From NCBI GenBank assembly GCA_002399785.1, contig DHEH01000004.1:19107-83106 (forward strand): DNA of 64,000 nucleotides, given 5' to 3'. Numbering within the stretch: the stretch's first letter is position 1; the number at the start of each line of letters is the position of its first letter. A program made the position numbers and the translations under genes. The DNA is from Bacillales bacterium UBA4855 (GTDB taxonomy: Bacteria; Bacillota_I; Bacilli_A; RFN20; CAG-826). The notes beneath the pieces are model-generated. The model saw only the letters and a program-made list of their open reading frames with translations. It was not told the DNA's origin and searched no databases. Positions 5,945 through 30,365 of this stretch are shown in pieces.

Positions 5945-6047
5945 GCTGAATATAATAGACCATTATAATTAAAATGTCAAATATGCGATACCATCGCATT
6001 TATTTACGAGAACTTACCATATAAACTAGATATAATAATTTTAAAAA

Positions 6048-6293
6048 CTAGTTAGAATAATCATCGATTTCTTCAACTAAATCTTCAAAAGTTATGTCTA
6101 ATCCAATACAAATCCTGTTCAACATCTCTAACGAAGGATTTCTTGTTCCTCTTTCAAGATCACTTAAATAATTTTTGTTTATTGCGCAAAGATAAGCCAA
6201 TTCTTCTTGAGAAATCTTTTTTTGTTGTCTCAAAAGACGAATTTTACGGCCTAAATTTTTTTGTATTTTTAAAAAATTATTGTTCTTGTCCAT
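6048..6293 (-). CDS. XRE-family helix-turn-helix transcriptional regulator
   Basis: 'LGRKIRLLRQQKKISQEELAYLCAINKNYLSDLERGTRNPSLEML' is a canonical HTH_3 domain. It overlaps the whiA 3' end by 17 nt. Confidence 0.8.
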   Translation of the reverse strand: MDKNNNFLKIQKNLGRKIRLLRQQKKISQEELAYLCAINKNYLSDLERGTRNPSLEMLNRICIGLDITFEDLVEEIDDYSN

Positions 6294-7239
6294 ATTGTTC
6301 AGCCATTTTTCTAATTTTTATGAATAAATGATTAACATTTGATTTCGATACTTTAACATCAAGTTTCTCACTTAACATTTCAGCTAAATCATTGTAAGTT
6401 GCTTCTGGTTGTTCTAAACGCAATTCGCACAATAATCGTAATTTTTGATTTTCAATCAACTTGATTCCGATTCTTCTGTCAAGAAATTTTATTTGCTCTA
6501 TTTGTTCTTTTGCATTATTTACGGATTTTTTATAATTATATGCATCGCAATTCATTAATCTGTTTGTAACGTTACTAAAATCTCTATCAACTCTAACGTT
6601 TTCAAACTCTAAACATGAATTAGAAGCATCTAAATAGGCAATATATGAACTTATCTGATCACTTTTCTTCAAATATACAGTGTAATTATTTCTTCTTTTA
6701 GTATATTTAAAATCAAATCGATAATCTTTAACCTTATTCAAAAGTTTTAAAACAGCCTTTGCAAAAGCTTCATCTCTAACATACATTTCAAGATGATAGT
6801 TGCTTGAAGATGGAGAGTTACAACTTCCACATGCAAGAAAAATCCCCTGCAAATACCCCTTAATTCCTTCTTCTTTGTTAGTTAAATGATATGGAATCTT
6901 ATCATCCAAAAAATTAATACTCAGTTCATCTTTAATTAAATCTATTCCGTCTAAAACATTAATAATGTATTCAGTAGCTTTAAAAAATTTCATTGATTTC
7001 CTATAACTAAACGAAATTACGACATCAGGAAACAATGTTTTTACAATCATATAAATATATTTAGCAATTTTTGCGTTTTCAGTAACCAATTGAAGAATAT
7101 CTTTTTTATTTTTGAATACAATGGTTCCGTTAATTCGCAAAAAAGCAGCTAAAATAGAGACCATTCTTTCAATCGATGTTTCACCTTGCGAGGAAATTTC
7201 TTCCTTTATTTTTTGTGTAAAAGATACATTTTCTTCCAT
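6277..7239 (-). CDS. whiA: DNA-binding protein WhiA
   Basis: 320 aa. The N-terminal 'FTQKIKEEI', a LAGLIDADG-like middle domain ('GIFLACGS') and a C-terminal HTH ('YNDLAEMLSEK...SKSNVNHLFIKI') match WhiA architecture. Confidence 0.85.
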   Translation of the reverse strand: MEENVSFTQKIKEEISSQGETSIERMVSILAAFLRINGTIVFKNKKDILQLVTENAKIAKYIYMIVKTLFPDVVISFSYRKSMKFFKATEYIINVLDGIDLIKDELSINFLDDKIPYHLTNKEEGIKGYLQGIFLACGSCNSPSSSNYHLEMYVRDEAFAKAVLKLLNKVKDYRFDFKYTKRRNNYTVYLKKSDQISSYIAYLDASNSCLEFENVRVDRDFSNVTNRLMNCDAYNYKKSVNNAKEQIEQIKFLDRRIGIKLIENQKLRLLCELRLEQPEATYNDLAEMLSEKLDVKVSKSNVNHLFIKIRKMAEQYGQEQ

Positions 7240-7257
7240 TTTTAAATTATATATTTT

Positions 7258-8178
7258 TTATTTTTTTAATTTATTAAGATATTTTATTGCGCTCGTTGCT
7301 GCAGTAGCTCCGTCCCCACAAGCAGTTACTATTTGACGTAAAGGTTTATCGACGATGTCTCCAGCAACAAAAACGCCAGGAACATTGGTCTCCATATTAA
7401 AATTAGCTTTTATAAAACCACGATTTTGATCCAAACCAAGTTGATTAAATATATAGTTACTTGGAATATCGCCAGTAAATGGAAAACATCCACTTACTTC
7501 AAGAATTTTTTCATCGTTGTTTTCTAAATTTTGTATTTTGACCGCTTCTAAACCATCAACACCAATAAATTCTTTTATTTTAAAAGGAGAGAGGAATTCA
7601 ACATTATTCATTTTTTTAAGGTTGGTTAAATTCCCTTCGTAATCATCGTCATTTTTATCACTTACTAAATATAACTTGCTGACTAAATTAGATAAATAAG
7701 TAGCTTCTAGATAGCCTTTTCTCTCATTAGCGAAAACAACCACCTCTTTATTCTTATAGAAGAATCCGTCGCAAACAGCGCAATAAGAGATTCCTTTTCC
7801 TACAAACTTATCTTCGTTAATTATTCCAAGTTTTTTGGTAGTTGAGCCAGTTGCAATAATCAATGATTTAGTAAGATAGGTATTGTTTTCACAAACAATT
7901 TCAAAGCCTTCTTCATTCTTATTGATTCCTTTAATAAGCTCTTTACTAATTTTTACGCCAAGGGCTTCAACTTGTTTTTTCATATTCAGAATAAGAGAAA
8001 AACCGTCAATCGAAGGAAAACCAGGATAATTATCAATTTGAGTTATGATATTTAATTTTCCTCCAACCATTTCTTTTTCAAAAATTGCAAATTTAAATTT
8101 GGTACGAGCTAAATATAAAGCACTTGTTAAACCAGCCGAACCAGCTCCGATAATAATTACATCTTCTTCAATTCTCAT
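7258..8178 (-). CDS. trxB: Thioredoxin-disulfide reductase
   Basis: 'IIIGAGSAGLTSALY' FAD motif, the redox-active CAVCDG site, and 'GVFVAGD' near the C-terminus. Confidence 0.9.
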   Translation of the reverse strand: MRIEEDVIIIGAGSAGLTSALYLARTKFKFAIFEKEMVGGKLNIITQIDNYPGFPSIDGFSLILNMKKQVEALGVKISKELIKGINKNEEGFEIVCENNTYLTKSLIIATGSTTKKLGIINEDKFVGKGISYCAVCDGFFYKNKEVVVFANERKGYLEATYLSNLVSKLYLVSDKNDDDYEGNLTNLKKMNNVEFLSPFKIKEFIGVDGLEAVKIQNLENNDEKILEVSGCFPFTGDIPSNYIFNQLGLDQNRGFIKANFNMETNVPGVFVAGDIVDKPLRQIVTACGDGATAATSAIKYLNKLKK

Positions 8179-8821
8179 ATTTCTTTATCTCCTTATATAA
8201 TTCGTCATAGTTTTTACAAAAAGCTAATGGATGCGGATTTGAAACGAGGTTATAAAATCTCTCATTCATGCTCATTAATACACAATCAATATTAGCATTT
8301 TTAGCAGCTAAATAATCGTAATCAGTATCACCAACAGCTAATACTTCTTTATTGGTAACGCCAAAGTGACTTAAAACAAGTTTCATACCTGCTGGATCTG
8401 GCTTTTGTGAATCAACACTTTCACATGTTACAACAAAATCAAATAAATTAAATATATGTGCTCTTTTTAAGCAATCTTTAGTTCTAACATAATTTTTATT
8501 AGTGACAATCGCTAATTTGTATCCATCTTTTTTAAGAGCTCTACAAACTTTAGCGCAATGCGTAAAAATATGGCAATATTGGTCATAATATTTACCGGTT
8601 CGACTTCTATATTCTTTCAAAACATCATCATAATTAGAATCTGGAAATAAAGTATTGATAGCATAACCAATTGGGGGCCCACTAAAAGTAGCAATCTGTT
8701 TTCTATCAACTTTATATCCTTTAGGTTTGAATGTTTTAATCATTTCTTCCCAAGATTTAAAAATGACGTAATCTGTATCAATAATCGTCCCATCCATATC
8801 AAAAATAATGACTTTATACAT
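8168..8821 (-). CDS. HAD-superfamily phosphatase (PpaX / phosphoglycolate-phosphatase-like)
   Basis: Motif I 'IIFDMDGTIIDTD', 'VTNK' and 'VGDTDYD'. Its position directly downstream of lgt matches the lgt-ppaX arrangement of Bacillota. Confidence 0.75.
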   Translation of the reverse strand: MYKVIIFDMDGTIIDTDYVIFKSWEEMIKTFKPKGYKVDRKQIATFSGPPIGYAINTLFPDSNYDDVLKEYRSRTGKYYDQYCHIFTHCAKVCRALKKDGYKLAIVTNKNYVRTKDCLKRAHIFNLFDFVVTCESVDSQKPDPAGMKLVLSHFGVTNKEVLAVGDTDYDYLAAKNANIDCVLMSMNERFYNLVSNPHPLAFCKNYDELYKEIKKYEN

Positions 8822-10257
8822 TATTTAGCATCCTCAATTACATTATCGTTTTGATGTAATTCAACGTACTTTTGCCAAGGATATTTAAATTTGCCTTTAG
8901 AATTTAAGATCTTTAAAACTACAAATATTGCGACTATAAATAAACCAATACCAATCATCGCGTAAGAGCTAACAATACTCCAATTTCCGTCATCTCCCAT
9001 ATTGTAAGCATAATATCTTAAAGGTTCCAAAATAGCTCTTGTTGCCCCATACCACGCTAAATACCAACCAACTAACGAACCATTTGCATGATAATCTTTT
9101 CCTTTTACTTGTTTTAAACCAAATAAATTCATGATTCCGTATTCTATAAAGAAATATCCAGTAAAATTAATTAAAGCCTCAATAAAGAATAATGGAACGT
9201 AGATTTGATTAGCAGGAAGAGTAGGACCAATACTGCTATAATGCATATTATTTCTTATAAATGTTGGTATCCACATCCAATTTGCAATATCACTAGCATT
9301 GCCATGAACTTCACAATTGAAGAAGTTACCTATACGTCCAATTCCTTGAGCAACAAGAATTGTAGGAACAACAATATCGATTAATAGTAAATAATCAATA
9401 ACTTTATAACGACTAGATTTAATTCTAACAATTATCAAATAAACTATACCCGTAATAATACCAAAAACAGCGCCACCCATAATGGCTAATCCACCATCCC
9501 AAATAGCAAACATTTTTATAGGATCACTTGCATATGTCGCCCATTCACCAATTACGTACCAAGCTCTAGCACCGATAATTCCACAAGGAAAAGCTATAAA
9601 AAATACGACAGTAATTAAGCCGTTTTGTCCGTAAACTTTAAATAATTTGTAGTCGCAAATATAAAGAACTAAGCATGCTCCACTAATAATAAAAATTGCG
9701 TATAGAGCGATACTAAAGAAAGCTTCAGAAGATTTCCCACTATGATATTCAAGAGTAATTCCTTTACTACCAAAACAGATTTGATTAGCTAAAGGATAAA
9801 TTAAATAGCCAGCATTGCCTTGCATCATCATGAAGAAAAAGCCAATTGCTCCGATAACCGAAACATATTGAGTGACACGAATAATTAAAGAAGCCTTTTT
9901 ATCTTCAATCTTCTTTAGATACATTCTTATAAAAAGAATAGTGAAGAAAGACCATAAAAATACAATGAAAAACAAAGTGCCGAATATAATATAAAAGATG
10001 TCTAAGGAAGAAATAATGATTGATTTAGAGGTTAAATATTCAATAATACCTCCATTTGTAAAATAGGCAACTTGGGCTAAATAAAATCCAAGCAATAAAG
10101 CAATTCCAGGAATAACCAAATAAAGAATATGCGATTTTAGATATTTCAAATCAAAATCATCTTTGAAATCGTAAAATTTCTTCATAAAGAAATATGCGTA
10201 TGAAGCAACACCTCCAATAATTAGAATTGTTGCAATAATTGTAAAAGCTAAACTCAT
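8821..10257 (-). CDS. lgt: Prolipoprotein diacylglyceryl transferase with a roughly 175-aa N-terminal polytopic extension
   Basis: The C-terminal 300 aa carry Lgt motifs ('WDGGLAIMGGAVFG', 'GRIGNFFNCEVHG'). Total length is 478 aa, versus about 270-290 aa for typical Lgt. Confidence 0.85.
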   Translation of the reverse strand: MSLAFTIIATILIIGGVASYAYFFMKKFYDFKDDFDLKYLKSHILYLVIPGIALLLGFYLAQVAYFTNGGIIEYLTSKSIIISSLDIFYIIFGTLFFIVFLWSFFTILFIRMYLKKIEDKKASLIIRVTQYVSVIGAIGFFFMMMQGNAGYLIYPLANQICFGSKGITLEYHSGKSSEAFFSIALYAIFIISGACLVLYICDYKLFKVYGQNGLITVVFFIAFPCGIIGARAWYVIGEWATYASDPIKMFAIWDGGLAIMGGAVFGIITGIVYLIIVRIKSSRYKVIDYLLLIDIVVPTILVAQGIGRIGNFFNCEVHGNASDIANWMWIPTFIRNNMHYSSIGPTLPANQIYVPLFFIEALINFTGYFFIEYGIMNLFGLKQVKGKDYHANGSLVGWYLAWYGATRAILEPLRYYAYNMGDDGNWSIVSSYAMIGIGLFIVAIFVVLKILNSKGKFKYPWQKYVELHQNDNVIEDAK

Positions 10258-13112
10258 TTGATCTTTTCCTTTCTTAATTTATCGGCTTCAAGAACCCTTT
10301 TTAAATAATAACCAGTATAACTAATTGGACTCTTACAAATATCTTCAGGAGTTCCTTTAGCAATAATTTGACCGCCTTTATCGCCACCATTAGGCCCCAA
10401 ATCAACAACATAATCAGCCATTTTAACAACTTCGAGATTGTGTTCAATAACTAAAACAGTGTCGCCACCATCTACAATCTTTTGTAAAACTTTAAGTAAA
10501 CGTGCAACATCATCGACATGAAGGCCAGTTGTAGGTTCATCAAGAATAAACAAAGTTTTACCAGTTGGTTTCTTCTCTAAATAATAAGCAAGTTTAACTC
10601 TTTGAGCTTCGCCACCACTTAAAGTAGTGGCTGGTTGACCAACTTTTATATAACCAAGTCCAACATCGATAAGTGTCTTTAATTTTCTTGCTAAACCATA
10701 ATGATTCTTGAAAAAATTATACGCTTCATCGATTGTCATCTCTAAAACATCGTAAATATTCTTACCTTTATATGTGCACAATAAAGTTTCGTCATTGTAC
10801 CTTTTTCCGCCACATTCATCACACTTTACATAAACGTCTGGTAAAAAGTTCATAGGAATTTTGGTGACTCCTGCGCCATAGCAATGTTCACAACGACCTC
10901 CAGGAACATTAAAACTAAACCTTCCTTTATTATAATTGTGGGCTCTAGCTTCAACAGTTTGAGCAAAAATATCACGAATATCGTCAAAAGCTTTAACATA
11001 AGTTGCAGGATTACTTCTTGGCGTTCTTCCGATTGGTTCTTGGCTTATATTTATAACTTTATCAATATTTTGACTTCCTTTTAATTCCTTATAAGGACCA
11101 GGAATTACTGAGGATTTCTCAATTATTTTATACAAAGCATTATATAAAGTTTCGTTAATTAAACTAGATTTTCCACTTCCGCTAACTCCGGTAACACAAA
11201 CAAAACAACCGAGTGGTACTTTTAAATTAACAGATTTTAAATTGTTCAAAGTACATCCATTAATTTCAACAAATAAACCATTACCTTTGTTTCTAACAGA
11301 CGAAACAGCAATATATTTTTTTCCACTTAAATATTGTCCGGTAATCGACTCTTCACAATCTTCGATATCTTTTAACGAGCCAGCAGCGATAAGTTTTCCA
11401 CCATGTTCACCAGCTCCTGGACCAATATCAACTAAATAATCAGCACTTCTTATCATGTCTTCATCGTGCTCGACCACTATTAAAGTATTGCCTAAATCAC
11501 GCATCTCTTTTAAAGAAGCAATAAGTTTTTCACTATCTCTTTGATGTAAGCCAATGCTTGGTTCATCTAAAACATACAAAACCCCGCTCAACTTTGACCC
11601 GATTTGTGTGGCCAATCTAATTCGCTGAGACTCACCTCCACTTAAGGTCATAGCAAGTCTAGCTAAGGTTAAATATTCAAGTCCTACATCAATTAAAAAT
11701 TTAACTCTATTTTTAATTTCGTTAATGACAATACTTGCAACATTATTTTGATATTCATTTAATTTAGAAGGCAATTGACAGATGAAATCATATAATTTTT
11801 CAAGTGGCATTAAACAGATATCATATATATTTTTTTCATCGATCAATACCGAAAGAACTTCTTTACTAAGCCTTGCTCCATGGCATTCGCTACATTCAAC
11901 ATTAGTTAAAAACTTCGAGTAATATTCACGATTAAATTCGCTTGAAGTTTCAAAATACAATCTTTCAATTCTTGCTTTAACACCTTCAATATAACCATTT
12001 TTCTTGCTTATATTACCACTGCTACTTGTAATCGAATAAGCAAATGGCTCTTTACTTCCATTCATTATAATATCAACTTGTTCGGCAGTTAATTTCTTAA
12101 AAGGAACATTGATTGAAATGCTATAGTGATCAAGTAAAATTTTAAATGTTTGCCAATCAATATTGGTTGTATTGACTGTATTTTTATAATATAAAATTGC
12201 CCCTTCGCTGATGCTAATATCTTTATCTGGAACCAATAAATCTAGATCAACTTCTTGGTTAATTCCAAGTCCGTTACATTTTGGACAGCATCCTAAAGGC
12301 GAATTAAAACTAAATAAACGTGGTTCAAGTTTTGGAACTGTGAAGCCGCAAATTGGACACGAATTGTGCTCACTATAAAGTGTTTCAGCATCATTTGCTA
12401 GAACGATAACGTACCCGTTTCCCCAATCAACAGCTAATTCAACCGCTTCAAAAATACGACTTCGACTATCTTCTTTTAATGCGATTCTATCGATAACAAT
12501 ATCAAGATTGTGACGTAGATTTTTATCTAAACATTCATTAAATTCATCAAGAGAAATAATTTGACCATCCAATCTAATTCTTGTGAAACCAGCTTTTTTA
12601 ATTTTATCTAAATTGTCTTTTTGAGATCCTTTTTCATTTTTAACAATAGGAGCCAATATTTGAATTCGAGAATTTAAATTATTTTCCATTATAATCGAAG
12701 TAATTTTTTGAACAGAAGAGGAGACAATAGGAATGTGATGAGTTGGACAATAAGGAACACCAACACGGCTATAAAGAAGACGTAAATAATCATAAATTTC
12801 TGTTACTGTACCAACTGTACTTCTTGGATTATGAGATACACTTTTTTGATCAATAGCAATTGAAGGCGATAGACCTTCAATTGATTCAACATCAGGTTTC
12901 TCAAAATTACCAAGGAATTGACGAGCATAACTTGATAAAGACTCAACATATCTTCTTTGTCCCTCAGCAAAAATAGTATCAAAAGCTAAAGTGGATTTAC
13001 CGCTTCCACTAACACCAGTAAAAACAATTAATTTGTCTTTAGGTATATCTACATCGAGGTTTTTTAAGTTGTTTTCTTTAGCGCCTCTAACTTTAATCCA
13101 ATTGCTACTCAT
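10254..13112 (-). CDS. uvrA: Excinuclease ABC subunit A
   Basis: 952 aa with 'IKVRGAKENNLKNLDVDIP', two Walker A sites (GVSGSGKS twice), two LSGGE signatures and zinc-finger Cys clusters. Confidence 0.97.
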   Translation of the reverse strand: MSSNWIKVRGAKENNLKNLDVDIPKDKLIVFTGVSGSGKSTLAFDTIFAEGQRRYVESLSSYARQFLGNFEKPDVESIEGLSPSIAIDQKSVSHNPRSTVGTVTEIYDYLRLLYSRVGVPYCPTHHIPIVSSSVQKITSIIMENNLNSRIQILAPIVKNEKGSQKDNLDKIKKAGFTRIRLDGQIISLDEFNECLDKNLRHNLDIVIDRIALKEDSRSRIFEAVELAVDWGNGYVIVLANDAETLYSEHNSCPICGFTVPKLEPRLFSFNSPLGCCPKCNGLGINQEVDLDLLVPDKDISISEGAILYYKNTVNTTNIDWQTFKILLDHYSISINVPFKKLTAEQVDIIMNGSKEPFAYSITSSSGNISKKNGYIEGVKARIERLYFETSSEFNREYYSKFLTNVECSECHGARLSKEVLSVLIDEKNIYDICLMPLEKLYDFICQLPSKLNEYQNNVASIVINEIKNRVKFLIDVGLEYLTLARLAMTLSGGESQRIRLATQIGSKLSGVLYVLDEPSIGLHQRDSEKLIASLKEMRDLGNTLIVVEHDEDMIRSADYLVDIGPGAGEHGGKLIAAGSLKDIEDCEESITGQYLSGKKYIAVSSVRNKGNGLFVEINGCTLNNLKSVNLKVPLGCFVCVTGVSGSGKSSLINETLYNALYKIIEKSSVIPGPYKELKGSQNIDKVINISQEPIGRTPRSNPATYVKAFDDIRDIFAQTVEARAHNYNKGRFSFNVPGGRCEHCYGAGVTKIPMNFLPDVYVKCDECGGKRYNDETLLCTYKGKNIYDVLEMTIDEAYNFFKNHYGLARKLKTLIDVGLGYIKVGQPATTLSGGEAQRVKLAYYLEKKPTGKTLFILDEPTTGLHVDDVARLLKVLQKIVDGGDTVLVIEHNLEVVKMADYVVDLGPNGGDKGGQIIAKGTPEDICKSPISYTGYYLKRVLEADKLRKEKIK

Positions 13113-13208: not shown

Positions 13209-13925
13209 TTAAAGAACGAAGAAATAAACACCAATAAACTGTAAAATAATGCCAATCAAAACAAAGAAATGGAACACAGTGTGCCACCAAACGCTTTTTT
13301 TAGAACCAATACCATATAAAATAGAACCAATTGTAAAAGCAACTCCACCACCTAATAAAAAACCAAAACCGCTCCAACCTATCGTATTAATTAAAGCATC
13401 GCTAGCAAAAATAATTGACCAACCAACTCCAACATAAATCAACATACTTAATACATTATATTTTTTAATATTAATACTATTCATCGTGATCCCTAAGGCA
13501 ATTAATGCCCAAGCAATCGCAAAAATAATCCATCCGCTATGAGTAATAAGCCCTCCCCAACATGGCTCATTTCTAATAGCACAAAGACAAAAAATTGAAT
13601 AAGTGCAACCAACTAAAACAAATACAAAATCATGATCAATAACTCTAAATACTCTTTTCCCGTTGTTTCGAGCTAAAGCATGATACAAACAAGAGATAGT
13701 CATACAACTAATAATTCCAAATACATAAATAGATGAACAAACAATTTGATAAACAAAGTTTGTATCATGCGCGACTTCTGGATTATTTGGATAAATACCA
13801 TTAATTTTTAACATCATTAAAACTAAAGCAACAATTCCAAAAATTGCACCTAGACCATGACTTATCGAATTCCATAATTCATGTCTTAATTTATAATTTG
13901 GTAATGTAATTTCTTCTACACTCAT
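13209..13925 (-). CDS. Hemolysin III / PAQR-family membrane protein
   Basis: 7-TM ORF with N-terminal 'ELWNSISHGLG', 'CLYHAL' and C-terminal 'WWHTVFHFFVL' His motifs typical of the YplQ/HlyIII family. Confidence 0.8.
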   Translation of the reverse strand: MSVEEITLPNYKLRHELWNSISHGLGAIFGIVALVLMMLKINGIYPNNPEVAHDTNFVYQIVCSSIYVFGIISCMTISCLYHALARNNGKRVFRVIDHDFVFVLVGCTYSIFCLCAIRNEPCWGGLITHSGWIIFAIAWALIALGITMNSINIKKYNVLSMLIYVGVGWSIIFASDALINTIGWSGFGFLLGGGVAFTIGSILYGIGSKKSVWWHTVFHFFVLIGIILQFIGVYFFVL

Positions 13926-14005
13926 AATTCCCTCATCTAGTTTTCAATACTATTATACACATTATGCAAAACAAGTAAATAATCACTTAAATAAAAAGAA
14001 AAAAA

Positions 14006-14024
14006 GCAGTTCTTTTTGAACTAC
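14006..14024 (-). terminator. Weak rho-independent terminator downstream of plsC
   Basis: On the minus strand, GTAGTTC-AAAAA-GAACTGC is followed by TTTTTTT. The hairpin overlaps the plsC stop codon. Confidence 0.4.
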
Positions 14025-14839
14025 TTTTCTAAATATCCCTTGTAAATCCCCTCTAATTTTTCCGAAATAGCAACAGTTCCATTTTTAACTATATCTTCAT
14101 TTTTAATAATAGTTAACACTTTTGCCTCACATTTAGTAGGAATTATTATGCGATGTTTTTTAATTTTTTCTGCACCTTTGATACCAACAACAACAATATC
14201 GCATCCACCTTTTTGAGCTATTTTTAAGGCTCCAGGATGAAATGGTAAAAGAATTTTATCAGTTTTATTTCTTGTTCCTTCTGGAGCAATACTGATTGAA
14301 GCTTGTCCACTTTCTACAATCTTTGTGGCTTGAATAATTGTTTTGATTGCATTGAAATCATTTTGACGATCAATTGGTAAATAGCCTGCATTGTGTAAAA
14401 ATTTACCACAAACAAATATTTTCATATTTTCTGGCTTAGTAATACAAAGCAAATCTTTACCTCTAACTTTTGATATAAGCATTATTGGATCGAAATTTGA
14501 TTTATGATTGTAAATATATAAATAATTTTTTTTCTTATCTATTTCTTTAAAACCAACATATTTTGTATGGACATTCATCCAGAACAAAAATTGAAAACAA
14601 TATTGTTGAAGCCACCGTAAACAATATTTTGATGGTTTTTTAATTGGTTTTGTCGAAGACATAAATAATGAATTAACAATTAAATAAATTACTGATAATC
14701 CGAATGCAGCGATAAAAAAGACAATTAAACCAACAGGAATAACCCAAAAATATATCCAATTTTTATATAGTGATAATCCAAAATATAAACCCAGCGTTGA
14801 AGCAATGCTAATCAACACAAAAATAACACTTAATATCAT
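14021..14839 (-). CDS. plsC: 1-acyl-sn-glycerol-3-phosphate acyltransferase-family protein with N-terminal TM anchor
   Basis: Acyltransferase HX4D motif 'NHKSNFDP' and 'IAPEGTRNKT'. Confidence 0.8.
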   Translation of the reverse strand: MILSVIFVLISIASTLGLYFGLSLYKNWIYFWVIPVGLIVFFIAAFGLSVIYLIVNSLFMSSTKPIKKPSKYCLRWLQQYCFQFLFWMNVHTKYVGFKEIDKKKNYLYIYNHKSNFDPIMLISKVRGKDLLCITKPENMKIFVCGKFLHNAGYLPIDRQNDFNAIKTIIQATKIVESGQASISIAPEGTRNKTDKILLPFHPGALKIAQKGGCDIVVVGIKGAEKIKKHRIIIPTKCEAKVLTIIKNEDIVKNGTVAISEKLEGIYKGYLEK

Positions 14840-14962
14840 AGTGATATTATATATAATCTTTTTTTGATGTATACAAATAGTTTGCTCTTTACAAAGAATT
14901 TTTTACAATATTTTTTTATATTTGATTTATAATAAGGTCAATTATAGAGAAGGTACATTTTT

Positions 14963-15403
14963 ATGGAATTAAATGGGATGTTTGCTAATAGTGTAAGCAT
15001 TATTGCCATTGAAAAAAACGAAAAATTTTATTCGATGGCTTGTGCATGGGCTACTCAAATTGATTATGATCGTTTGATTATGTGTATCGGAAGTCAATCT
15101 GATACCGGGAACGTATTAAATGTTGGAGATATGGTTGGCATATCAGTTTTAAGTTCATCTCAACAAGATATAGCAGATAAAATTGGTTCAAAACACTCTC
15201 TTGATGTTGATAAAAGAACGCTTGTTGATTTTGATCTTTGCAAAAGTACATACCTCATTAAAGGATCTAAAACTAAAATTATCGGAAAAGTAATTTATAT
15301 TGATCATTATAAAGAAGCCATCAAAGATAAAATTGTTCAAATTAGAGTCATTGAAGGCAGTATTGATGAATCATCTGAATTCTTAATTTATAAACATCAT
15401 TAA
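14963..15403 (+). CDS. Flavin-reductase-like (split-barrel FMN-binding) domain protein
   Basis: 146 aa. 'SIIAIEKNEKFYSMACAWATQIDYDRLIMCIG' and 'GISVLSSSQQDIADKIG' resemble the PF01613 pattern. This is a weak call. Confidence 0.4.
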   Translation: MELNGMFANSVSIIAIEKNEKFYSMACAWATQIDYDRLIMCIGSQSDTGNVLNVGDMVGISVLSSSQQDIADKIGSKHSLDVDKRTLVDFDLCKSTYLIKGSKTKIIGKVIYIDHYKEAIKDKIVQIRVIEGSIDESSEFLIYKHH

Positions 15404-15476: not shown

Positions 15477-16040
15477 TTATTTATTTTTTGTAAAGAAAAC
15501 TTCAGCTTCAGCAACAAATTTTTCAAAGTCAAAAGATGAATTTTGAAGTCCTTTATGAACGATAGCTCCATCAGTTAAGATTAATATTAACCAAGAGAGA
15601 AATTTAGCTTCTTCTTGACCATATTCTCCTTCTAGCCTTTTATAAATTGAATCATTAAAAGAATTGTATTTACTAATCATTTTCTCTTTTAAAACTTGGT
15701 TTCCGTTAGTGCATTCAGCAAGTAAATTAATTCTTAAAGAAGGCGATCCGGTTCCCTTAAGTAAAACAAATTTTACAATTCTATGAAGCGAGGTATCTTT
15801 TTCTTTATTATCAATCCAAACAATTAATTCGTTATATAATTCATCAATTCTTTTTGAAAAAATATCGTAAACAATATCACTTTTGTTTTGATAATAATAA
15901 TAGATAGTTCCACTACTTATATGACAATTTTCAGCAACATCTCTTAAAGAAATATCCGAAAAATTCTTTTTTTGTAATAAATTCTCTGTTTCCTTTAAAA
16001 TCAATTCTTTAATATTTTCGTTTGATCTTTTCTTTCCCAT
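15477..16040 (-). CDS. TetR/AcrR-family transcriptional regulator
   Basis: N-terminal HTH 'FSDISLRDVAENCHISSGTIYYYYQNKSDI'. It is divergent from the 16140 operon. Confidence 0.85.
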   Translation of the reverse strand: MGKKRSNENIKELILKETENLLQKKNFSDISLRDVAENCHISSGTIYYYYQNKSDIVYDIFSKRIDELYNELIVWIDNKEKDTSLHRIVKFVLLKGTGSPSLRINLLAECTNGNQVLKEKMISKYNSFNDSIYKRLEGEYGQEEAKFLSWLILILTDGAIVHKGLQNSSFDFEKFVAEAEVFFTKNK

Positions 16041-16061: not shown

Positions 16062-16090
16062 TTGTTTTGCAATTCATTCTATTATATACT
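16062..16090 (+). promoter_or_regulatory. Candidate sigma-70-type promoter of the 16140 operon
   Basis: TTGTTT (16062-16067), a 17-nt spacer, then TATACT (16085-16090). The palindromic operator candidate lies just downstream. Confidence 0.35.
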
Positions 16091-16102: not shown

Positions 16103-16118
16103 TCGGTCAATTGACCGA
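16103..16118. promoter_or_regulatory. Perfect 16-bp palindrome, candidate TetR operator
   Basis: TCGGTCAATTGACCGA is a perfect inverted repeat in the divergent TetR / operon intergenic region. A 14/16 copy lies at 30350..30365. Confidence 0.5.
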
Positions 16119-16139: not shown

Positions 16140-17849
16140 ATGAAAATTAAAACATTACAGAGAAAAATTAAAAAACTCTATCCTTCAGTAGTTGTAGACA
16201 CAAAAGATGGTTGTGTACACTTAACAGGTACTCTTGATAATCGGGATGACATTGTTAATGCTGGTTATATGTCTGTTGATAAGAAGCGTTACCTTGGAGT
16301 TCTTAACGATATTAAGTTAAAAGGATTTGAAGAACCAAAAATACGTATTCCAAAAACTAACGATACTACCCTAGATGGTTTAAGAGTTGATTGTTTAGTA
16401 ATTGGAGGCGGAATTTCTGGCACTTCAATTCTAAGAGAATTAACAAGATATAACATATCTACTTTACTTGTTGAAAAAGAAAGCGATTTAGCGATGCAAG
16501 CAAGTGGTAGAAACGATGGAGAAGTACATCCGGGTGTCGACTTAAATAAAGGAAGTAAAAAACAATATTATGTCGTTCGTTCTAACCCTGAATTTGGAAA
16601 TATTTGTAAAGAATTGGATGTTGATTTTGTTAGACGTGGACAATATGCTTGTTTCGATAAACCAATTAATCCACTATTAAAATTATATGCTAAATTTAGA
16701 TCGATGAATGGCTGCCCAACGACAGTTGCTAATAAAAAAGAGATTGAAGAAAAAGAAACTCATTTTACAAAGAAGGTAAAATGCGCAATTTCTAATCCTC
16801 AATCAGGAGTTGTTTCTCCATATGAATTAACAATTGCTTTTGCTGAAAATGCTGTTAGTAACGGAGCAAAAGTTTCTTTAGATACCGCAATTTTAGATAT
16901 TGAAGTTAAAGGGGATAAAATTATTTCAGTAGAAACAAATAAAGGAACAATCTATCCAAAAGTAGTCATCAATGCAGCTGGTTGTTTTTCAGACAAAATT
17001 GCTGATATGGCTAACGATAGATTCTTTACTATTCATCCACGTAGTGGCACTGATTTCATTTTCGATAATAAAATCAGTGGTCAAATAAACCATATTTCAT
17101 CTTTTGTTGGCGCAAAAAAGAATAAAAAGAAACATTCTAAAGGTGGCGGAATAGTTAAAACTATAGATAATAATATTTTAATTGGTCCAAACGCCTACGA
17201 AACTCCTTATAGAGAAGATTATTCGGTGGTTGCCGGTTCTTTAGATGAAATAATTAAAAAGCAAGAAAGACTCTTACCATCATTAAACAAGAAAGATGTC
17301 ATCGCTTATTTTACTGGAACAAGAGCCGCAACATACGAAGAGGATTTTTATATCAATAAAGGTAGAAAAACCAAAAATATCGTTCATTGCGCTGGTATCC
17401 AATCACCTGGATTAACTACTGCTCCACTTGTGGCCAAAGATGTTAGTAAAATGGCTATCGAAGAATTGAGTGAAGTTATGAAAGTTGAAGAAAATAAGAG
17501 CTTTAATCCAATAAGAAAAAAGGATCCTATATTAAGAAAATTAAGTTCAGAAGAACGTAATGCTTTAATCAAAAAGAATCCAAGTTACGGAAGAATTGTT
17601 TGCCGTTGTGAACAAATCAGTGAAGGCGAAATAATTGATTGCCTTAATAGAAACATCAAGGTTCCAACAATTAACGGAATTAAACGTCGTGTTAGACCCG
17701 GTATGGGTCGTTGCCAAGGTGGTTTCTGTATGCCGCTTGTTGCTAAAATAATCTCAGATCACGAAAAATTTAATATATATGACGTTAAAGGAAAACAAAG
17801 TGATTATCCAGTTACCTTTAAATCAAATAAAAGAGAGAACCATGATTAA
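16140..17849 (+). CDS. FAD-dependent oxidoreductase of the GlpA / glycerol-3-phosphate-dehydrogenase-like family, with a C-terminal BFD-like [2Fe-2S] domain and an N-terminal BON-like extension
   Basis: 'DCLVIGGGISGTSILREL' dinucleotide fold. The C-terminal 'CRCEQISEGEI....RPGMGRCQGGFC' is a BFD-type motif. The first roughly 70 aa look BON-like. Confidence 0.8.
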   Translation: MKIKTLQRKIKKLYPSVVVDTKDGCVHLTGTLDNRDDIVNAGYMSVDKKRYLGVLNDIKLKGFEEPKIRIPKTNDTTLDGLRVDCLVIGGGISGTSILRELTRYNISTLLVEKESDLAMQASGRNDGEVHPGVDLNKGSKKQYYVVRSNPEFGNICKELDVDFVRRGQYACFDKPINPLLKLYAKFRSMNGCPTTVANKKEIEEKETHFTKKVKCAISNPQSGVVSPYELTIAFAENAVSNGAKVSLDTAILDIEVKGDKIISVETNKGTIYPKVVINAAGCFSDKIADMANDRFFTIHPRSGTDFIFDNKISGQINHISSFVGAKKNKKKHSKGGGIVKTIDNNILIGPNAYETPYREDYSVVAGSLDEIIKKQERLLPSLNKKDVIAYFTGTRAATYEEDFYINKGRKTKNIVHCAGIQSPGLTTAPLVAKDVSKMAIEELSEVMKVEENKSFNPIRKKDPILRKLSSEERNALIKKNPSYGRIVCRCEQISEGEIIDCLNRNIKVPTINGIKRRVRPGMGRCQGGFCMPLVAKIISDHEKFNIYDVKGKQSDYPVTFKSNKRENHD

Positions 17850-19086
17850 TTACGATACAGTCGTTATTGGCGGTGGCCCAGCTGGCCTAGCTAGCGCCAT
17901 TAGTGCGCACAATAATGGCGCAAAAGTCTTTTTAATTGAAAGAGAAGCACGACTTGGCGGAATTTTAAAACAATGTATTCATGATGGTTTTGGACTTCTT
18001 TATTTCAATGAAAAATTGTCAGGCCCAGAATATGCTCAAAATTTTATTGATAAATTTAATGAATTAAAAATTGAAAATACTACAAATAGTTTTGTTACAA
18101 AAATTACAAAAAAAGATGATCAATTTTTAATTGAATACGTTTCAGAAGACGGAGTAAAAGAAGTTTCTTCAAAGACCCTTATTTTATCTACTGGTTGCCG
18201 AGAAAGAACTTCAAAACAAGTTTTTATTAATGGAACAAGGCCATATGGCGTATTTTCTGCTAGTACCGCTCAATATTTTACGAATATTTTAGGTGTTTTA
18301 CCTTCAAAGAAATGCGTAATTTTAGGAAGTGGCGACATCGGATTAATTATGGCTCGAAGATTAACTCTTGAAGGAGTTAAAGTTCTTGGAGTTTATGAAA
18401 TTCTTCCTTCTCCATCAGGATTAACAAGAAATATTCATCAATGCTTATATGATTACAATATTCCACTTCATCTTTCACACACCATTACAAAATTATATGG
18501 AGAAAATAGATTAGAAGCTGTTGAAATTGCTCAAGTTGATGAAAAAATGCAACCAATTAAAGGAACAGAAGAAAAAATTGAGTGTGATGCATTGATTTTA
18601 TCAGTCGGTTTATTACCAGAAAATGAATTAGCTGAATCACTGGGAGTTCCACTTGATCCTAAAACTAGAGGCCCAATTGTCAACGAAAATTATATGACAA
18701 TGGTTGATGGGGTATTCACTTGTGGAAATGCAATGCAAGTTAATGATTTAGTTGATTACGTTTCGTTCACCGCTGAAAAAGCCGGACAAAGCGCTGCAAA
18801 ATATAAAATAAAAGAACAAACATATAATAATGTTGAAGCTAGTAAAGATTTCGGGTATGTCTTACCACAAAGATTGTCTAAAAATATTGAAAGTGAAAAT
18901 GTTGATTTCTATTTCCGTACCAAGAAAATTGAAGCTAAAGTTCAAGTTCAATTATTATGTAACGATAAAGTTATTTATTCTAAAACTTATCAACATCTTA
19001 AACCACCAGAGATGGAAAAAATCTCGATTAAATCAACTGATTTAATGATTAATGGAGATTTCAAACTTATTATGAAAAGAGGATAA
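17842..19086 (+). CDS. FAD/NAD(P)-binding pyridine-nucleotide-disulfide-type oxidoreductase (second subunit of the GlpA-like trio)
   Basis: I chose the start at 'MINYDTVVIGGGPAGLASA', with an AAAGAGAG SD-like run upstream and an 8-nt overlap with the previous stop. A second Rossmann motif is 'VILGSGDIGLIMA'. Confidence 0.8.
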   Translation: MINYDTVVIGGGPAGLASAISAHNNGAKVFLIEREARLGGILKQCIHDGFGLLYFNEKLSGPEYAQNFIDKFNELKIENTTNSFVTKITKKDDQFLIEYVSEDGVKEVSSKTLILSTGCRERTSKQVFINGTRPYGVFSASTAQYFTNILGVLPSKKCVILGSGDIGLIMARRLTLEGVKVLGVYEILPSPSGLTRNIHQCLYDYNIPLHLSHTITKLYGENRLEAVEIAQVDEKMQPIKGTEEKIECDALILSVGLLPENELAESLGVPLDPKTRGPIVNENYMTMVDGVFTCGNAMQVNDLVDYVSFTAEKAGQSAAKYKIKEQTYNNVEASKDFGYVLPQRLSKNIESENVDFYFRTKKIEAKVQVQLLCNDKVIYSKTYQHLKPPEMEKISIKSTDLMINGDFKLIMKRG

Positions 19087-19088
19087 TT

Positions 19089-19463
19089 ATGAAAGAATTA
19101 ACTTGTATAGTTTGCCCAAATAGTTGTTCTTTGAAAATTGAAAAAGTTAACGATGTATGGGTTGTAACCGAAAATAAATGTAAAAGAGGAGAGAAGTTTG
19201 CTATAAACGAGATGACGTGTCCGATGCGAACAATTTCTTCAACAGTTCGCACCACTTTCCCTGATGCACCAGTTGTTCCTGTAAGAGTTTCGGCAGAAAT
19301 TCCTAAAGATAAAATATTCGATGTTATGGAAGAAATTAATAAAGTAATTCTTGATAAACGAGTTAAAAGAGGATACAAAGTAATTAGTAGTTGTTTAGGA
19401 TTGAATGTGGACGTAATTGTCACAAGTAACATCCTAATTGAAAAAGGAGCGATTCATGAATAA
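19089..19463 (+). CDS. DUF1667-domain protein (third component commonly linked to the two flavoproteins)
   Basis: 124 aa. The N-terminal 'LTCIVCPNSCSL....CKRG' Cys cluster and the position after the two oxidoreductases match the DUF1667 pattern. Confidence 0.65.
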   Translation: MKELTCIVCPNSCSLKIEKVNDVWVVTENKCKRGEKFAINEMTCPMRTISSTVRTTFPDAPVVPVRVSAEIPKDKIFDVMEEINKVILDKRVKRGYKVISSCLGLNVDVIVTSNILIEKGAIHE

Positions 19464-20997
19464 TACCGAACCATTAGTATTCTCATTTGACTTTGGAACA
19501 CAAAGCGTTCGTGCTATGTTAGTTGATAAATGTGGCAAAATAGTTGCTTTGGTTAGAGAAAAATATCTTCCATCATACTACTCAAAAAAGATTGGTTACG
19601 CTGAACAATCATTTGATACCTATTATAAACACGCTTGCCTTGCTTCAAATAAATTAAAGGAGCAAAACAAAGAATTGTTTGAAAATATAATTTGTGTCAC
19701 CATTACTACAATTCGCGATACCTTCACTTGTACCGACGAAAAAGGTAATCCAATTAGAGATTTTATTCTTTGGTTAGATCAAAGAAGAGCTGAAGAACAA
19801 GAAAAGATGCCCTTATTTAAACGATTAATATTTAAAGCAGTTGGTATGGAATATGCTATAGAAAGACAAAGAGAAATATGTCGACCAGCATGGATTCGAC
19901 AAAACGAACCCGATTTATGGTCTAAAACTAAAAAATTTTGTAATATTAGCGCCATCTTAAATGCAAGATTAACTGGAAATTTTGTCGATTGTGACGCTTC
20001 TTGCATCGGTCGTGTTCCGTTTAATTATAAAAAACGTAACTGGATGAAAAGTAATGAACTTACTTATGAATTATTCGGTCTTGAACCTGACAAATTTATA
20101 AAAATTGTTAAACCAACTTCAAAAATTGGTGAAATTACAAGAAAAGCATCTCTTGAAACCGGTTTAAAAGAAGGATTACCAGTTATTGCTAGCGGTTCTG
20201 ATAAAGGATGCGAAACCATCGAATCTGGCGTTATGAATAATTATTCAGCAGCTCTTTCAATGGGCACTAGCGCCACAATTCAATTTGCTACTAAAAAATA
20301 TGTTGAACCAACAGCCTTCTTACCAGCTTATCCTTCTCCAAACCCAGATTTCTATAATCCTGAGTTACAAGTTATGCGCGCTGGTTGGATGTTCTATTGG
20401 TTTATTGAAAACTTCGGGTACGAAGATAAATTGATAGCTGCAAAAGAAGGTGTTTCTCCAGAACACATTCTCAATCGTCAACTCGATAAAGTACCACTTG
20501 GTTCTGGAGGGTTAATATTGCTCCCTTATTGGAATGCTCCACTAAAACAACCTGAAGCCAGAGGTTCAATTCTAGGTTTTATGCCAGATCACAATAAATA
20601 TTATATATATCGTGCAATTATGGAAGGTGTTGTCTTTACTCTCTATCAAGGATTTAAAACATTAGAGAAAAATTCAAAACATCACACTAAATTTCTTGTA
20701 ATCTCTGGAGGAAGTTCAGTCAGCGAAACAATTTGTCAAATTGTTGCTGATATCTTTAATCTTCCAGTCAAAAGATCAAAAGAAAGTGAAGCATGTGGAT
20801 TAGGTTCAGCAATGTGTGGATTCGTTGGAATGGGAATATATAAATCATTCAATGAAGCTGCTAGCAACATGGTAGGTTATGCTAAAACTTACGAACCAAT
20901 TAAAGAAAATCACCAAGAATACGAAAAAATATATCAAACTAAATTTAAAAAGATATATCCAAGCATTCGTGGGGTTTATAAAAATTACATAAAATAA
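19456..20997 (+). CDS. FGGY-family carbohydrate/polyol kinase
   Basis: I set the start at MNNTEP (AAAGGAG SD 7 nt upstream). 'FSFDFGTQSVRAMLVD' is the phosphate-1 motif and 'ISGGSSVSETICQIVADIFNLPV' is the C-terminal FGGY motif. Confidence 0.85.
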   Translation: MNNTEPLVFSFDFGTQSVRAMLVDKCGKIVALVREKYLPSYYSKKIGYAEQSFDTYYKHACLASNKLKEQNKELFENIICVTITTIRDTFTCTDEKGNPIRDFILWLDQRRAEEQEKMPLFKRLIFKAVGMEYAIERQREICRPAWIRQNEPDLWSKTKKFCNISAILNARLTGNFVDCDASCIGRVPFNYKKRNWMKSNELTYELFGLEPDKFIKIVKPTSKIGEITRKASLETGLKEGLPVIASGSDKGCETIESGVMNNYSAALSMGTSATIQFATKKYVEPTAFLPAYPSPNPDFYNPELQVMRAGWMFYWFIENFGYEDKLIAAKEGVSPEHILNRQLDKVPLGSGGLILLPYWNAPLKQPEARGSILGFMPDHNKYYIYRAIMEGVVFTLYQGFKTLEKNSKHHTKFLVISGGSSVSETICQIVADIFNLPVKRSKESEACGLGSAMCGFVGMGIYKSFNEAASNMVGYAKTYEPIKENHQEYEKIYQTKFKKIYPSIRGVYKNYIK

Positions 20998-21010
20998 AGG
21001 AAACAAAATT

Positions 21011-22744
21011 ATGACAAAAAAGAAAGAAGAATTTTTACCAAAATGGGTGACTGAAGAAGCTTCTCCAAGATCTTATAGATCAATCGGAAGATGGGGAGAT
21101 CCAAAATTCGTCAAATTCCCAAAACCTGCTTTATACAAATTTATGAAGCAAACATTTAATATGACTGACGAGGATTTCAAGCACTATCATAACGATATTG
21201 GTTTAGAAGATGTCGATATTAAAATTCCAACAAAAATGAGCGAAAAAGATATTAAAGCTTTTGCACAAATTGTTGGTGAAAAAAATATTTCACTCGATGT
21301 TTACGATAGATTATTCGTAATGTACGGAAAAACATTATATGACGTCATGAGAATTAGAGAGCATAAATTCGATAGTGTTCCTGATTTAGTTGTTTATCCA
21401 GAAGATACCGATCAAATCGAAAAAATAGTTGCTTATTGTACTGAAAATAAGATCCCACTTTATGTTTATGGTGGAGGATCAAGTGTCACTCGTGGTGTTG
21501 AACCAATTAAAGGCGGTGTCTCTCTTGATATGAGACGTAATTTCAATAAAGTCTTATCATTTAATGATATCGATCAAACCATCACTGTTCAAGCTGGTAT
21601 GAGTGGACCTGATTTAGAAAAACATCTTAATAATGCTATGCAAGAATTTAATGCATCTAGAGCTTATACTTGCGGTCACTTCCCACAATCATTTGAATAT
21701 TCTTCAGTTGGTGGTTGGGTTGTTACTCGTGGAGCTGGACAAAATAGTACATATTACGGTGTCATTGCTGATATCGTTTTATCACAAAAATACGCTACAC
21801 CAATCGGAACTATTAAAACTTCCCACTATCCTCGTGAATCAACCGGACCAAATCTTAATCAAATTATGATGGGATCAGAAGGAACATTTGGTGTTTTAAC
21901 TGAAGTAACTTTAAAAGTCTTTAGATATATGCCAAAAAATCGTAAAAGATATTCTTATATGTTTAAAAACTGGCAAGATGCTATGAATGCCGCTCGTGAA
22001 ATCATGCAAAGCGAAGATGGCTATCCATCAGCTTTTAGAGTATCTGACCCAGAAGAAACCGATATGATGCTTAAATTATATAATGTTGATGATTCACCAT
22101 TACGTTATTTCTTAGCTGGTTTTGAACCAATGAAAAGAAGTTTAATGTTAGGTTTTACTGAAGGAGACAAAGAATATTCCAAAAATGTTCGTAAAACAAT
22201 CGCTCGTGTCGCTAGAAAATATCATGCTCGTTCTTTAACTGGGCTTGTTTGCAAAAGCTGGGAACACGGAAGATTTAACGATCCATATTTAAGAGATACC
22301 CTTCTTGATTTTGGCATTGCTACCGATACTTTAGAGTGTACTGTCAATTGGTCAAATATGGCTCAAGTTCACGAAGAAGTTCGTAAAATTTGTCACGCTA
22401 GACCAAATACAGTCGTTACCACTCACTTGTCACATGCTTATCCACAAGGTGCTAACTTATATTTCATTTTTATCACTCATAGTGAAACTAGTGAAGATTT
22501 TAAAAAGTACCACACCACTATTCTTGATGCTATTCAAAAGAGTGGAGCTGCTATTAGTCACCACCATGGTGTCGGAAAAATGTTTGCTCCATGGCTTGAA
22601 GGCTACATGGGCAGAAAAGAATTCGGTATCTACCATGTTTTAAAAGATTATTTCGACAAAGATTATTTAATGAATCCAGGCGGAACAATTGGTTTAGATC
22701 TTGAAGAAAAAGACAAAAAATTCTTAAGAGACGACATTAAATAA
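21011..22744 (+). CDS. FAD-linked oxidase, alkyl-dihydroxyacetonephosphate-synthase (AGPS)-like
   Basis: PCMH-type FAD domain ('VVYPEDTDQIEKIV...YVYGGGSSV'). 'VGGWVVTRGAGQNSTYYG', 'STGPNLNQIMMGSEGTFGVLTEVTLKV', 'HLSHAYPQGANLYFIF' and an 'HHHGVGK' loop all resemble AGPS blocks. Confidence 0.75.
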   Translation: MTKKKEEFLPKWVTEEASPRSYRSIGRWGDPKFVKFPKPALYKFMKQTFNMTDEDFKHYHNDIGLEDVDIKIPTKMSEKDIKAFAQIVGEKNISLDVYDRLFVMYGKTLYDVMRIREHKFDSVPDLVVYPEDTDQIEKIVAYCTENKIPLYVYGGGSSVTRGVEPIKGGVSLDMRRNFNKVLSFNDIDQTITVQAGMSGPDLEKHLNNAMQEFNASRAYTCGHFPQSFEYSSVGGWVVTRGAGQNSTYYGVIADIVLSQKYATPIGTIKTSHYPRESTGPNLNQIMMGSEGTFGVLTEVTLKVFRYMPKNRKRYSYMFKNWQDAMNAAREIMQSEDGYPSAFRVSDPEETDMMLKLYNVDDSPLRYFLAGFEPMKRSLMLGFTEGDKEYSKNVRKTIARVARKYHARSLTGLVCKSWEHGRFNDPYLRDTLLDFGIATDTLECTVNWSNMAQVHEEVRKICHARPNTVVTTHLSHAYPQGANLYFIFITHSETSEDFKKYHTTILDAIQKSGAAISHHHGVGKMFAPWLEGYMGRKEFGIYHVLKDYFDKDYLMNPGGTIGLDLEEKDKKFLRDDIK

Positions 22745-22815: not shown

Positions 22816-22845
22816 ATTTGCTTAAATTCACAATAAACAAAAAAG

Positions 22846-22867
22846 TAACGCTTTTTCCAAAGCGTTA
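22846..22867 (-). terminator. Rho-independent terminator after the enoate-reductase gene
   Basis: Stem TAACGCTT/AAGCGTTA (8 bp, 6-nt loop) with an A-run on the plus strand (a T-run on the minus strand), 36 nt past the stop. Confidence 0.5.
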
Positions 22868-22902
22868 TTTTAATATTTTTTTAGATTATAAAAGAAAAAT
22901 CT

Positions 22903-30349: not shown

Positions 30350-30365
30350 TCAGTCATTTGACCGA
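30350..30365. promoter_or_regulatory. Imperfect copy (14/16) of the 16103 palindrome, upstream of the cooC-like operon
   Basis: TCAGTCATTTGACCGA versus TCGGTCAATTGACCGA. It is flanked by GTCAGT and CAGTATT direct repeats. Confidence 0.35.

Follow-up and report, generated by a model that had tools for sequence, protein, structure and literature searches.

To our knowledge, alkyl-dihydroxyacetone phosphate (alkyl-DHAP) synthase, AGPS or ADPS (EC 2.5.1.26; structures 2uuu and 4bby), stands alone among characterised enzymes in making the alkyl ether linkage of ether lipids by way of a dihydroxyacetone phosphate (DHAP) intermediate, and it has so far been treated as a speciality of eukaryotes and myxobacteria. 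We describe an AGPS-like flavoenzyme of 577 amino acids (aa) that is encoded, together with a kinase and a three-subunit dehydrogenase, by a putative operon at positions 16140 to 22744 of a 64,000-nucleotide stretch of DNA (hereafter the window) from Bacillales bacterium UBA4855 (GenBank assembly GCA_002399785.1, contig DHEH01000004.1, positions 19,107 to 83,106). It represents a sister clade of the known synthases which has the complete catalytic apparatus, is abundant among Firmicutes and Chloroflexota that live anaerobically in guts, digesters and landfills, and is always linked to a kinase and a glycerol-phosphate dehydrogenase. The reading that we favour, at a probability of about 0.5, is that a 1-O-substituted glycerol is phosphorylated and then oxidised by the enzymes of this cassette and finally has its C1 substituent exchanged or cleaved off by AGPS-type chemistry, with DHAP as the product.

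Relatives of the individual parts of this cassette have been described in two other settings. In Pseudomonas aeruginosa the AraC regulator GliR (PA3027) activates PA3026-PA3024, which encode an AGPS-like protein, a GlpD homologue and an FGGY kinase; the GliR regulon also includes a YegS-like lipid kinase as well as PlcA, a phospholipase C, deletion of PA3026-PA3024 leaves growth on glycerol unaffected, and Kotecka et al. link these genes to glycerolipid metabolism (PMC8151288). Schut, Poole and Adams have shown that the FngABC of Pyrococcus is an oxidoreductase for glycerol 3-phosphate (G3P) that bifurcates electrons and depends on ferredoxin and NAD, and have noted that many clostridial FngABC paralogues lie beside non-glycerol (sugar) kinases, for which polyol substrates were proposed (PMC13689815).

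The present locus resembles PA3026-PA3024 (with PA3023, in the GliR regulon) in that genes for an AGPS-like protein, a G3P-type dehydrogenase and an FGGY kinase are joined in a single operon which has a divergent regulator of its own. The dehydrogenase of P. aeruginosa, however, is a quinone-linked GlpD and its regulator an AraC activator, whereas here FngABC stands in GlpD's place beside a putative TetR repressor; P. aeruginosa also has the extra YegS-like lipid kinase. The likeness to FngABC of Pyrococcus furiosus (PMC13689815) covers all three subunits (DAO + BFD, Pyr_redox_2 and DUF1667), and the genome encodes pyruvate:ferredoxin oxidoreductase (PFOR) to supply reduced ferredoxin. Unlike the P. 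furiosus enzyme, the operon FngABC is not linked to GlpK, a GlpK-linked copy being found elsewhere in the genome, and its FngA carries a BON-like extension; its substrate is probably a substituted G3P. Compared with AGPS itself, the 577-aa protein has the same VAO/PCMH fold, AGPS-only N-terminal domain, catalytic residues and HHH loop, but it falls in a separate deep clade, its operon partners are a kinase and a G3P-type dehydrogenase and not acyltransferase, fatty-acyl reductase and alkyl-DHAP reductase, and its host is of a strict-anaerobe type.

An earlier, sequence-only reading of this DNA had proposed that the oxidase belongs with AGPS rather than with generic GlcD, and the matches to known structures bear this out. 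Pfam recognises FAD_binding_4 and FAD-oxidase_C (E 2e-32 and 2e-31), the VAO/PCMH architecture. A phmmer search of the PDB gives 253 bits to Dictyostelium AGPS (2uuu; E 5e-74, query residues 31-557) and 199 bits to guinea-pig AGPS (4bby), as against 73 bits (E 2e-19) to D-lactate dehydrogenase and about 70 bits to glycolate oxidase. For an AlphaFold2 model with a pLDDT of 87, the top 37 Foldseek matches are all AGPS chains, with a TM score of about 0.8 across some 570 columns, that is the whole length of the protein, compared to 0.66 for D-lactate dehydrogenase; identity in the structural alignment to AGPS is about 25-28%. The AGPS-specific domain of about 110 residues which precedes the FAD domain and carries the gating helix is present, the alignment with 2uuu beginning at query residue 31, and D-lactate dehydrogenase lacks it.

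The residues on which AGPS catalysis depends are also in place. Mutagenesis of the Dictyostelium enzyme has shown that R352, R447 and Y508 matter (PMC3509576), and their counterparts, after correction for a 3-residue offset of the PDB numbering, are Arg343 (SAFRVSD), Arg428 (PYLRDT) and Tyr484 (NLYFIF), with the HHH loop at His517-519. The codons at 22559-22567 that had been assigned to this loop are indeed those of His517-519 (21011 + 516 x 3), and the four sequence blocks quoted with them all occur in the translation. These six residues are kept in 33-35 of the 35 members of the protein's own clade, and likewise in canonical AGPS and every other AGPS-like clade, the exception being the middle histidine, which is Gln in 10 of 33 GlpD/DAGK-linked sequences. 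The GlcD-like paralogue used as the single outgroup has E, a gap, G and E at the positions of Arg343, Arg428, His517 and His518, while retaining Tyr at 484 and His at 519. Taken together, the sequence matches, the conserved catalytic residues and the whole-length fold match place the 577-aa protein in the AGPS family.

Membership of the family does not amount to orthology with the known synthases. In a FastTree phylogeny of 193 AGPS-like sequences with the GlcD-like outgroup, obtained with one fast method and with uncertain rooting, the 577-aa protein falls in a clade of 35 (support 100) that contains the Firmicutes proteins linked to FngABC and FGGY, the Anaerolineae proteins linked to GlpD and FGGY, and a NUDIX fusion. 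A separate clade (support 99) holds P0208, which is essentially Dictyostelium AGPS (1092 bits to 2uuu), the acyltransferase-AGPS fusion P0153, and bacterial genes (L091, L094, L099) flanked by a PlsC-type acyltransferase, an SDR protein and HMG-CoA reductase, one of whose products scores 474 bits against 2uuu. This second clade looks like biosynthetic AGPS, and by its position in the tree the 577-aa protein is assigned as an orthologue of neither eukaryotic nor canonical bacterial AGPS.

In the metagenome loci L091 (1287-~6600), L094 (~6000-10600) and L099, HMG-CoA reductase, the PlsC-type acyltransferase, the canonical-clade AGPS and the SDR gene stand in a row, a set which looks like a bacterial, eukaryote-like ether-lipid biosynthesis pathway with an isoprenoid link. 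P0129 and P0137 are fusions of a NUDIX hydrolase to an AGPS-like domain. P0129 falls within the clade of the 577-aa protein, which hints that a nucleotide-linked precursor may feed some members.

The tree bears on one alternative in particular, an O2-independent ether-lipid synthesis of the animal type, in which the kinase and the dehydrogenase would make DHAP, or would oxidise lysophosphatidate to acyl-DHAP, and the AGPS-like enzyme would form alkyl-DHAP by replacing the acyl group with a fatty alcohol. Such a reaction could draw on the full set of AGPS catalytic residues and on the N-terminal domain specific to AGPS, a PlsC-type acyltransferase gene lies two genes upstream (14021-14839), the GlpD fusions described below could in principle run a redox-neutral cycle (acyl-G3P oxidised, alkyl-DHAP reduced), and the scheme, the main idea of the sequence-only reading, matches the KEGG-style reading in the P. 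aeruginosa paper (PMC8151288). We nevertheless consider it unlikely: the 577-aa protein lies outside the clade of Dictyostelium-type AGPS, the acyltransferase-AGPS fusion and the bacterial genes linked to acyltransferase and SDR, of the relatives only the closest, L002, shares the upstream acyltransferase, and the gene content of the cassette and of the genome, set out below, points away from it.

The region comprises five co-directional genes and a divergent TetR gene. Their order, GlpA-like dehydrogenase, second flavoprotein, DUF1667 protein, FGGY kinase and 577-aa oxidase, is as first described, and is confirmed by open reading frame (ORF) calls and Pfam/NCBIfam scans:

15477-16040, minus strand: TetR-family regulator, divergent from the operon (PF00440 TetR_N, E 1e-9)
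16140-17849, plus strand: FngA/GlpA-like FAD dehydrogenase, DAO + BFD [2Fe-2S], with a BON-like N-terminal extension of about 83 aa (DAO 6e-54, Fer2_BFD 2e-9)
17842-19086, plus strand (longest ORF from 17779): FngB-like FAD/NAD(P) oxidoreductase (Pyr_redox_2 1e-31)
19089-19463, plus strand: FngC-like DUF1667 protein (PF07892 1e-25)
19456-20997, plus strand (longest ORF from TTG 19438): FGGY-family kinase of a module-specific subfamily (FGGY_N and FGGY_C both matched)
21011-22744, plus strand: AGPS-like flavoenzyme, 577 aa, with Arg343, Arg428, Tyr484 and His517-519 (FAD_binding_4 + FAD-oxidase_C)
22842-22871, no strand assigned: bidirectional terminator-like hairpin with a 13-pair stem and T-runs on both strands, between the operon and a convergent OYE gene

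ATG 17842 and ATG 19456 are likely to be the true starts of the FngB and kinase genes, since both have good ribosome-binding sites (AGAGAG 8 nt 5' of the former, where ATGATTAA overlaps the FngA stop, and AAAGGAG 6 nt 5' of the latter) and both, being in frame, overlap the stop of the upstream gene as ATGAnTAA. In the reading that we favour, the five genes would form one TetR-repressed operon closed by the hairpin at 22842-22871.

The arrangement of these genes recurs well beyond this genome. Neighbourhoods were rebuilt from ORF calls, BLAST and Pfam, and the operon proteins were compared by tblastn with 28 genome loci. Thirteen loci, which come from Bacilli, Lachnospiraceae, Blautia, Clostridium and Syntrophomonas, have the genes for FngA, FngB, FngC, the FGGY kinase and the AGPS-like protein in a cluster, with the order of the last two varying between loci, and at least 13 Chloroflexota loci have the AGPS-like gene next to that for an FGGY kinase; the five-gene arrangement is therefore not due to chance. 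The AGPS-like protein is the best conserved of the set (55-94% identity); for the kinase the figure is 39-45% once the two closest relatives are set aside. The AGPS-like protein is about 70% identical across many Clostridia, its Blautia caecimuris orthologue being 70% identical, and the expectation that an AGPS-type enzyme would be out of place in an anaerobe was thus mistaken.

In Anaerolineae another G3P-type dehydrogenase adjoins the AGPS-like gene in place of FngABC. The Anaerolineae core consists of a FadR-type GntR regulator (FadR_C 2e-34), a GlpD-type dehydrogenase (DAO + DAO_C) instead of FngABC, the AGPS-like gene and the FGGY kinase, and in four representative proteins of about 1100 aa the AGPS-like domain, its catalytic motifs intact, is fused to GlpD. 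In AGPS-like clades other than that of the 577-aa protein GlpD is frequently a neighbour or a fusion partner, and a kinase of the DAG-kinase type is frequent. Amongst 80 metagenome loci GlpD adjoins the AGPS-like gene in about 35, and the third gene encodes a lipid kinase (DAGK_cat/YegS_C) in 14, as opposed to an FGGY kinase in 4; L100 and L108 show the layout GlpD<-TetR<- ->AGPS-like->DAGK. The AraC/AGPS-like/GlpD/FGGY layout of P. aeruginosa recurs in L047, L050 and L055, whose AGPS-like proteins belong to another clade than the 577-aa protein. In the favoured reading, the operon would be an anaerobic, ferredoxin-linked version of a widespread three-function module made up of a kinase, a G3P-type dehydrogenase and an AGPS-clade flavoenzyme. 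The loci compared share no transporter, isomerase, aldolase or epimerase with the cassette, their flanking genes being variable, and the conserved cassette contains no acyltransferase, fatty-acyl reductase or alkyl-DHAP reductase.

Other neighbours were seen more sporadically. In seven loci (L075, L076, L079, L082, L086, L089, L107) a MerR regulator, a phosphoribosyltransferase-like protein and a START/Polyketide_cyc2 lipid-binding protein precede the AGPS-like gene. In the Firmicutes loci L028 (2282-5629), L008 (1182-3634), L020 and L006 an ABC ATPase and a permease lie directly 5' of the module's regulator gene; the permease is of the FtsX/MacB type in L028, the only locus where this was shown, and that of L008 was tested and had no Pfam match. 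The association of this pair is too inconsistent for it to be counted as part of the cassette. Apparent AGPS-DAGK fusions in long ORFs of L090, L102, L104 and L108 were likewise rejected, as artefacts of ORF calling in high-GC DNA: the kinase domain occupies only the C-terminal ~300 residues and the AGPS-like query finds no match in those ORFs.

The dehydrogenase and the kinase of the operon each stand apart from the enzymes of ordinary glycerol metabolism. FngA (DAO + BFD 2Fe-2S), FngB (FAD/NAD) and FngC (DUF1667) are encoded together, as in the FngABC family, and the best structural match of FngA is Mycoplasma GlpO (4x9m). The N-terminus of FngA (window 16140-16390) gives a BON match which is weak (E 0.008) and below the Pfam threshold; a similar extension is suggested by protein length in other Firmicutes cassettes (567-628 aa); the GlpK-linked FngA of this genome and Anaerolineae FngA (~492-533 aa) lack it. 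The DUF1667 gene is one of two copies in the genome. The kinase scores below the NCBIfam equivalog cut-offs for both XylB (229 against 380 bits) and GlpK (about 110 against 590 bits). Together with those of all AGPS-like modules it makes up a single subfamily, far from GlpK; in what we take to be the GlpK numbering, these kinases keep the equivalents of Arg83, Trp103 and Asp245 and not those of Glu84, Tyr135 and Phe270. A second, stand-alone kinase of the same subfamily, 39% identical, is encoded on contig C9 (17866-19395; L032:1393-2964) between the genes for an ABC ATPase and PPDK.

The nearest solved relatives of the operon kinase are gluconate kinase and LsrK, and FGGY is a carbohydrate-kinase family. 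This would suit the catabolism of a soluble polyol or sugar alcohol, with FGGY making a polyol phosphate, FngABC oxidising it, and the AGPS-like protein either oxidising a small hydroxy compound in the manner of ordinary FAD dehydrogenases or feeding electrons to FngBC; polyols are what Schut et al. propose for the clostridial FngABC paralogues beside sugar kinases (PMC13689815). Such a function seems improbable to us. It leaves unexplained why the residues for the non-redox AGPS chemistry are near-invariant when the GlcD-like outgroup paralogue lacks the equivalents of Arg343, Arg428, His517 and His518, and why the transporter and the downstream enzymes (isomerase, aldolase, epimerase) are missing from the conserved cassette. 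There is, furthermore, no Etf or Fe-S acceptor for a VAO-type enzyme at this operon, and elsewhere AGPS-like genes are accompanied by lipid kinases, FadR-type or TetR regulators and START-type lipid-binding proteins.

The remainder of the genome (a 1.30-Mb assembly, 96% complete) narrows the choice of substrate. On contig C1 (20719-26365) a second, canonical FngABC has a true GlpK (672 bits to TIGR01311) immediately downstream of it; this is the ordinary glycerol route, and because of it plain glycerol is already covered. It follows that a further kinase/dehydrogenase set is unneeded for the supply of DHAP, which is what the sequence-only reading had envisaged as its role in making animal-style ether lipids, and that suggestion is further weakened by the absence of the partner enzymes from the cassette, the alkyl-DHAP reductase included, and by the clade of the protein. 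The other option named in the sequence-only reading, a new substrate for this fold, may hold. No match to a ketoacyl synthase (PF00109) was found in this 96%-complete genome, nor was a clear fatty-acyl reductase, the only candidate being a weak, 28-bit NAD_binding_4 match; both results count against ether-lipid synthesis. Since no ketoacyl synthase was found and four DegV (FakB-type) fatty-acid-binding genes were, the organism is probably unable to make fatty acids and scavenges them. As the sequence-only reading had stated, PFOR is encoded in this genome and radical enzymes, here of the BCR/HAD type, lie within the window.

A route acting on 1-O-substituted glycerols accommodates these observations because a G3P-type dehydrogenase is tightly coupled, or even fused, to an enzyme with C1-of-DHAP chemistry, a dedicated kinase is present, and glycerol has an operon of its own. 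In this route the FGGY kinase would phosphorylate the free primary hydroxyl of the substituted glycerol, and the FngABC paralogue would then oxidise the C2 carbinol to give a 1-O-substituted DHAP, coupled, by homology, to ferredoxin and NAD. Tyr484 would deprotonate C1, the carbanion would add to N5 of the flavin and the C1-O substituent would be expelled; addition of water or another acceptor would finally release DHAP for glycolysis, together with an alcohol or an acid. The most likely substrate of the kinase would be a lipid-derived monoradylglycerol (an alkyl- or acylglycerol), for which no transporter would be needed. We favour a lipid origin because lipid kinases occupy the same position elsewhere, the regulators are of the FadR and TetR types, neither a transporter nor a redox partner accompanies the cassette, and a fatty-acid synthase gene was not found in the host. 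What we observe is family membership, the catalytic residues, the conservation of the module and the fusions; from these we infer which substrate is used, in which direction the reaction runs and that its outcome is hydrolytic.

The logic of oxidising first and cleaving afterwards has a precedent in the breakdown of the beta-aryl ethers of lignin, where the LigD dehydrogenase converts the alcohol beside the ether to a ketone and so activates the alpha C-O bond for non-oxidative cleavage by the LigE/F etherase. The proteins are unrelated, the chemistry is glutathione-dependent and the substrates are aromatic, and the analogy is one of mechanism only. A more specific version of our proposal, which we advance tentatively and hold to be rather doubtful, is that an alkylglycerol is phosphorylated, oxidised to alkyl-DHAP by the electron-bifurcating dehydrogenase, and cut at the ether bond by the AGPS-type enzyme, working hydrolytically or in reverse, to give DHAP and a fatty alcohol. 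If true, this would be an O2-independent breakdown of glyceryl ethers, and the counterpart in anaerobes of alkylglycerol monooxygenase, which depends on O2 and tetrahydrobiopterin.

Several points weigh against a route through substituted glycerols. The substrates known for FGGY kinases are soluble sugars and polyols, not lipids, and we know of no demonstration that AGPS can be reversed or used hydrolytically on alkyl-DHAP. P. aeruginosa has both an FGGY and a DAGK-type kinase, and the two types may therefore not be interchangeable. We found no assay of any enzyme of this clade in the literature, and searches for AGPS together with FGGY, or for AGPS gene clusters in bacteria, returned nothing directly relevant. 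Finally, FngABC paralogues beside sugar kinases have been read as polyol enzymes by Schut et al. (PMC13689815). Should the cassette nonetheless cleave or remodel glyceryl ethers or esters, it would explain how ether lipids are turned over without O2, provide a concrete substrate class for the many non-glycerol FngABC paralogues, and assign a function to the GliR regulon of P. aeruginosa and to the GlpD/TetR/AGPS-like/DAG-kinase clusters of L100 and L108.

Control of the operon by TetR, as had been proposed from the divergent gene, is plausible. A -10-like TATACT (16085-16090, plus strand) is followed by a perfect 16-bp palindrome, TCGGTCAATTGACCGA, at 16103-16118, which is a candidate TetR operator, and the case is supported by the recurrence of operator-like repeats just after the -10 in related loci, including those of distant genomes. 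The closest relatives, L001 and L002, have a near-identical site, and imperfect inverted repeats with the same outer GTCG...GAC half-sites lie directly 3' of the -10 in L003, L005, L006, L010, L023 and L028; the TetR gene is likewise divergent in all eight of these loci. Just one further match occurs in the window, at 30350-30365, where 14 of 16 positions agree (TCAGTCATTTGACCGA; 0.1 expected by chance), and this is also the sole further site with two or fewer mismatches in the whole 1.3-Mb genome. It is located upstream of the convergent CooC/HGD-D/BcrAD/AcsB-like/OYE operon of the BCR/HAD type, which suggests that a single TetR may co-regulate both operons.

Upstream of the TetR gene, at 13209-15403, lie genes for an HlyIII/PAQR-family membrane protein, the PlsC-type acyltransferase and a small flavin-reductase-like protein, all of them lipid- or flavin-related. 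They were rejected as members of the module, being syntenic only in L002. The distribution of the AGPS-like gene itself is patchy within the class: it was found in 9 of the 301 genomes sampled, in 6 of 27 from the same family and in neither of the two other genomes of the genus. Near-identical DNA occurs in metagenomes from digesters, landfill, manure, wastewater and pigs, and Blautia caecimuris DSM 29492 (L028) is a cultured carrier.

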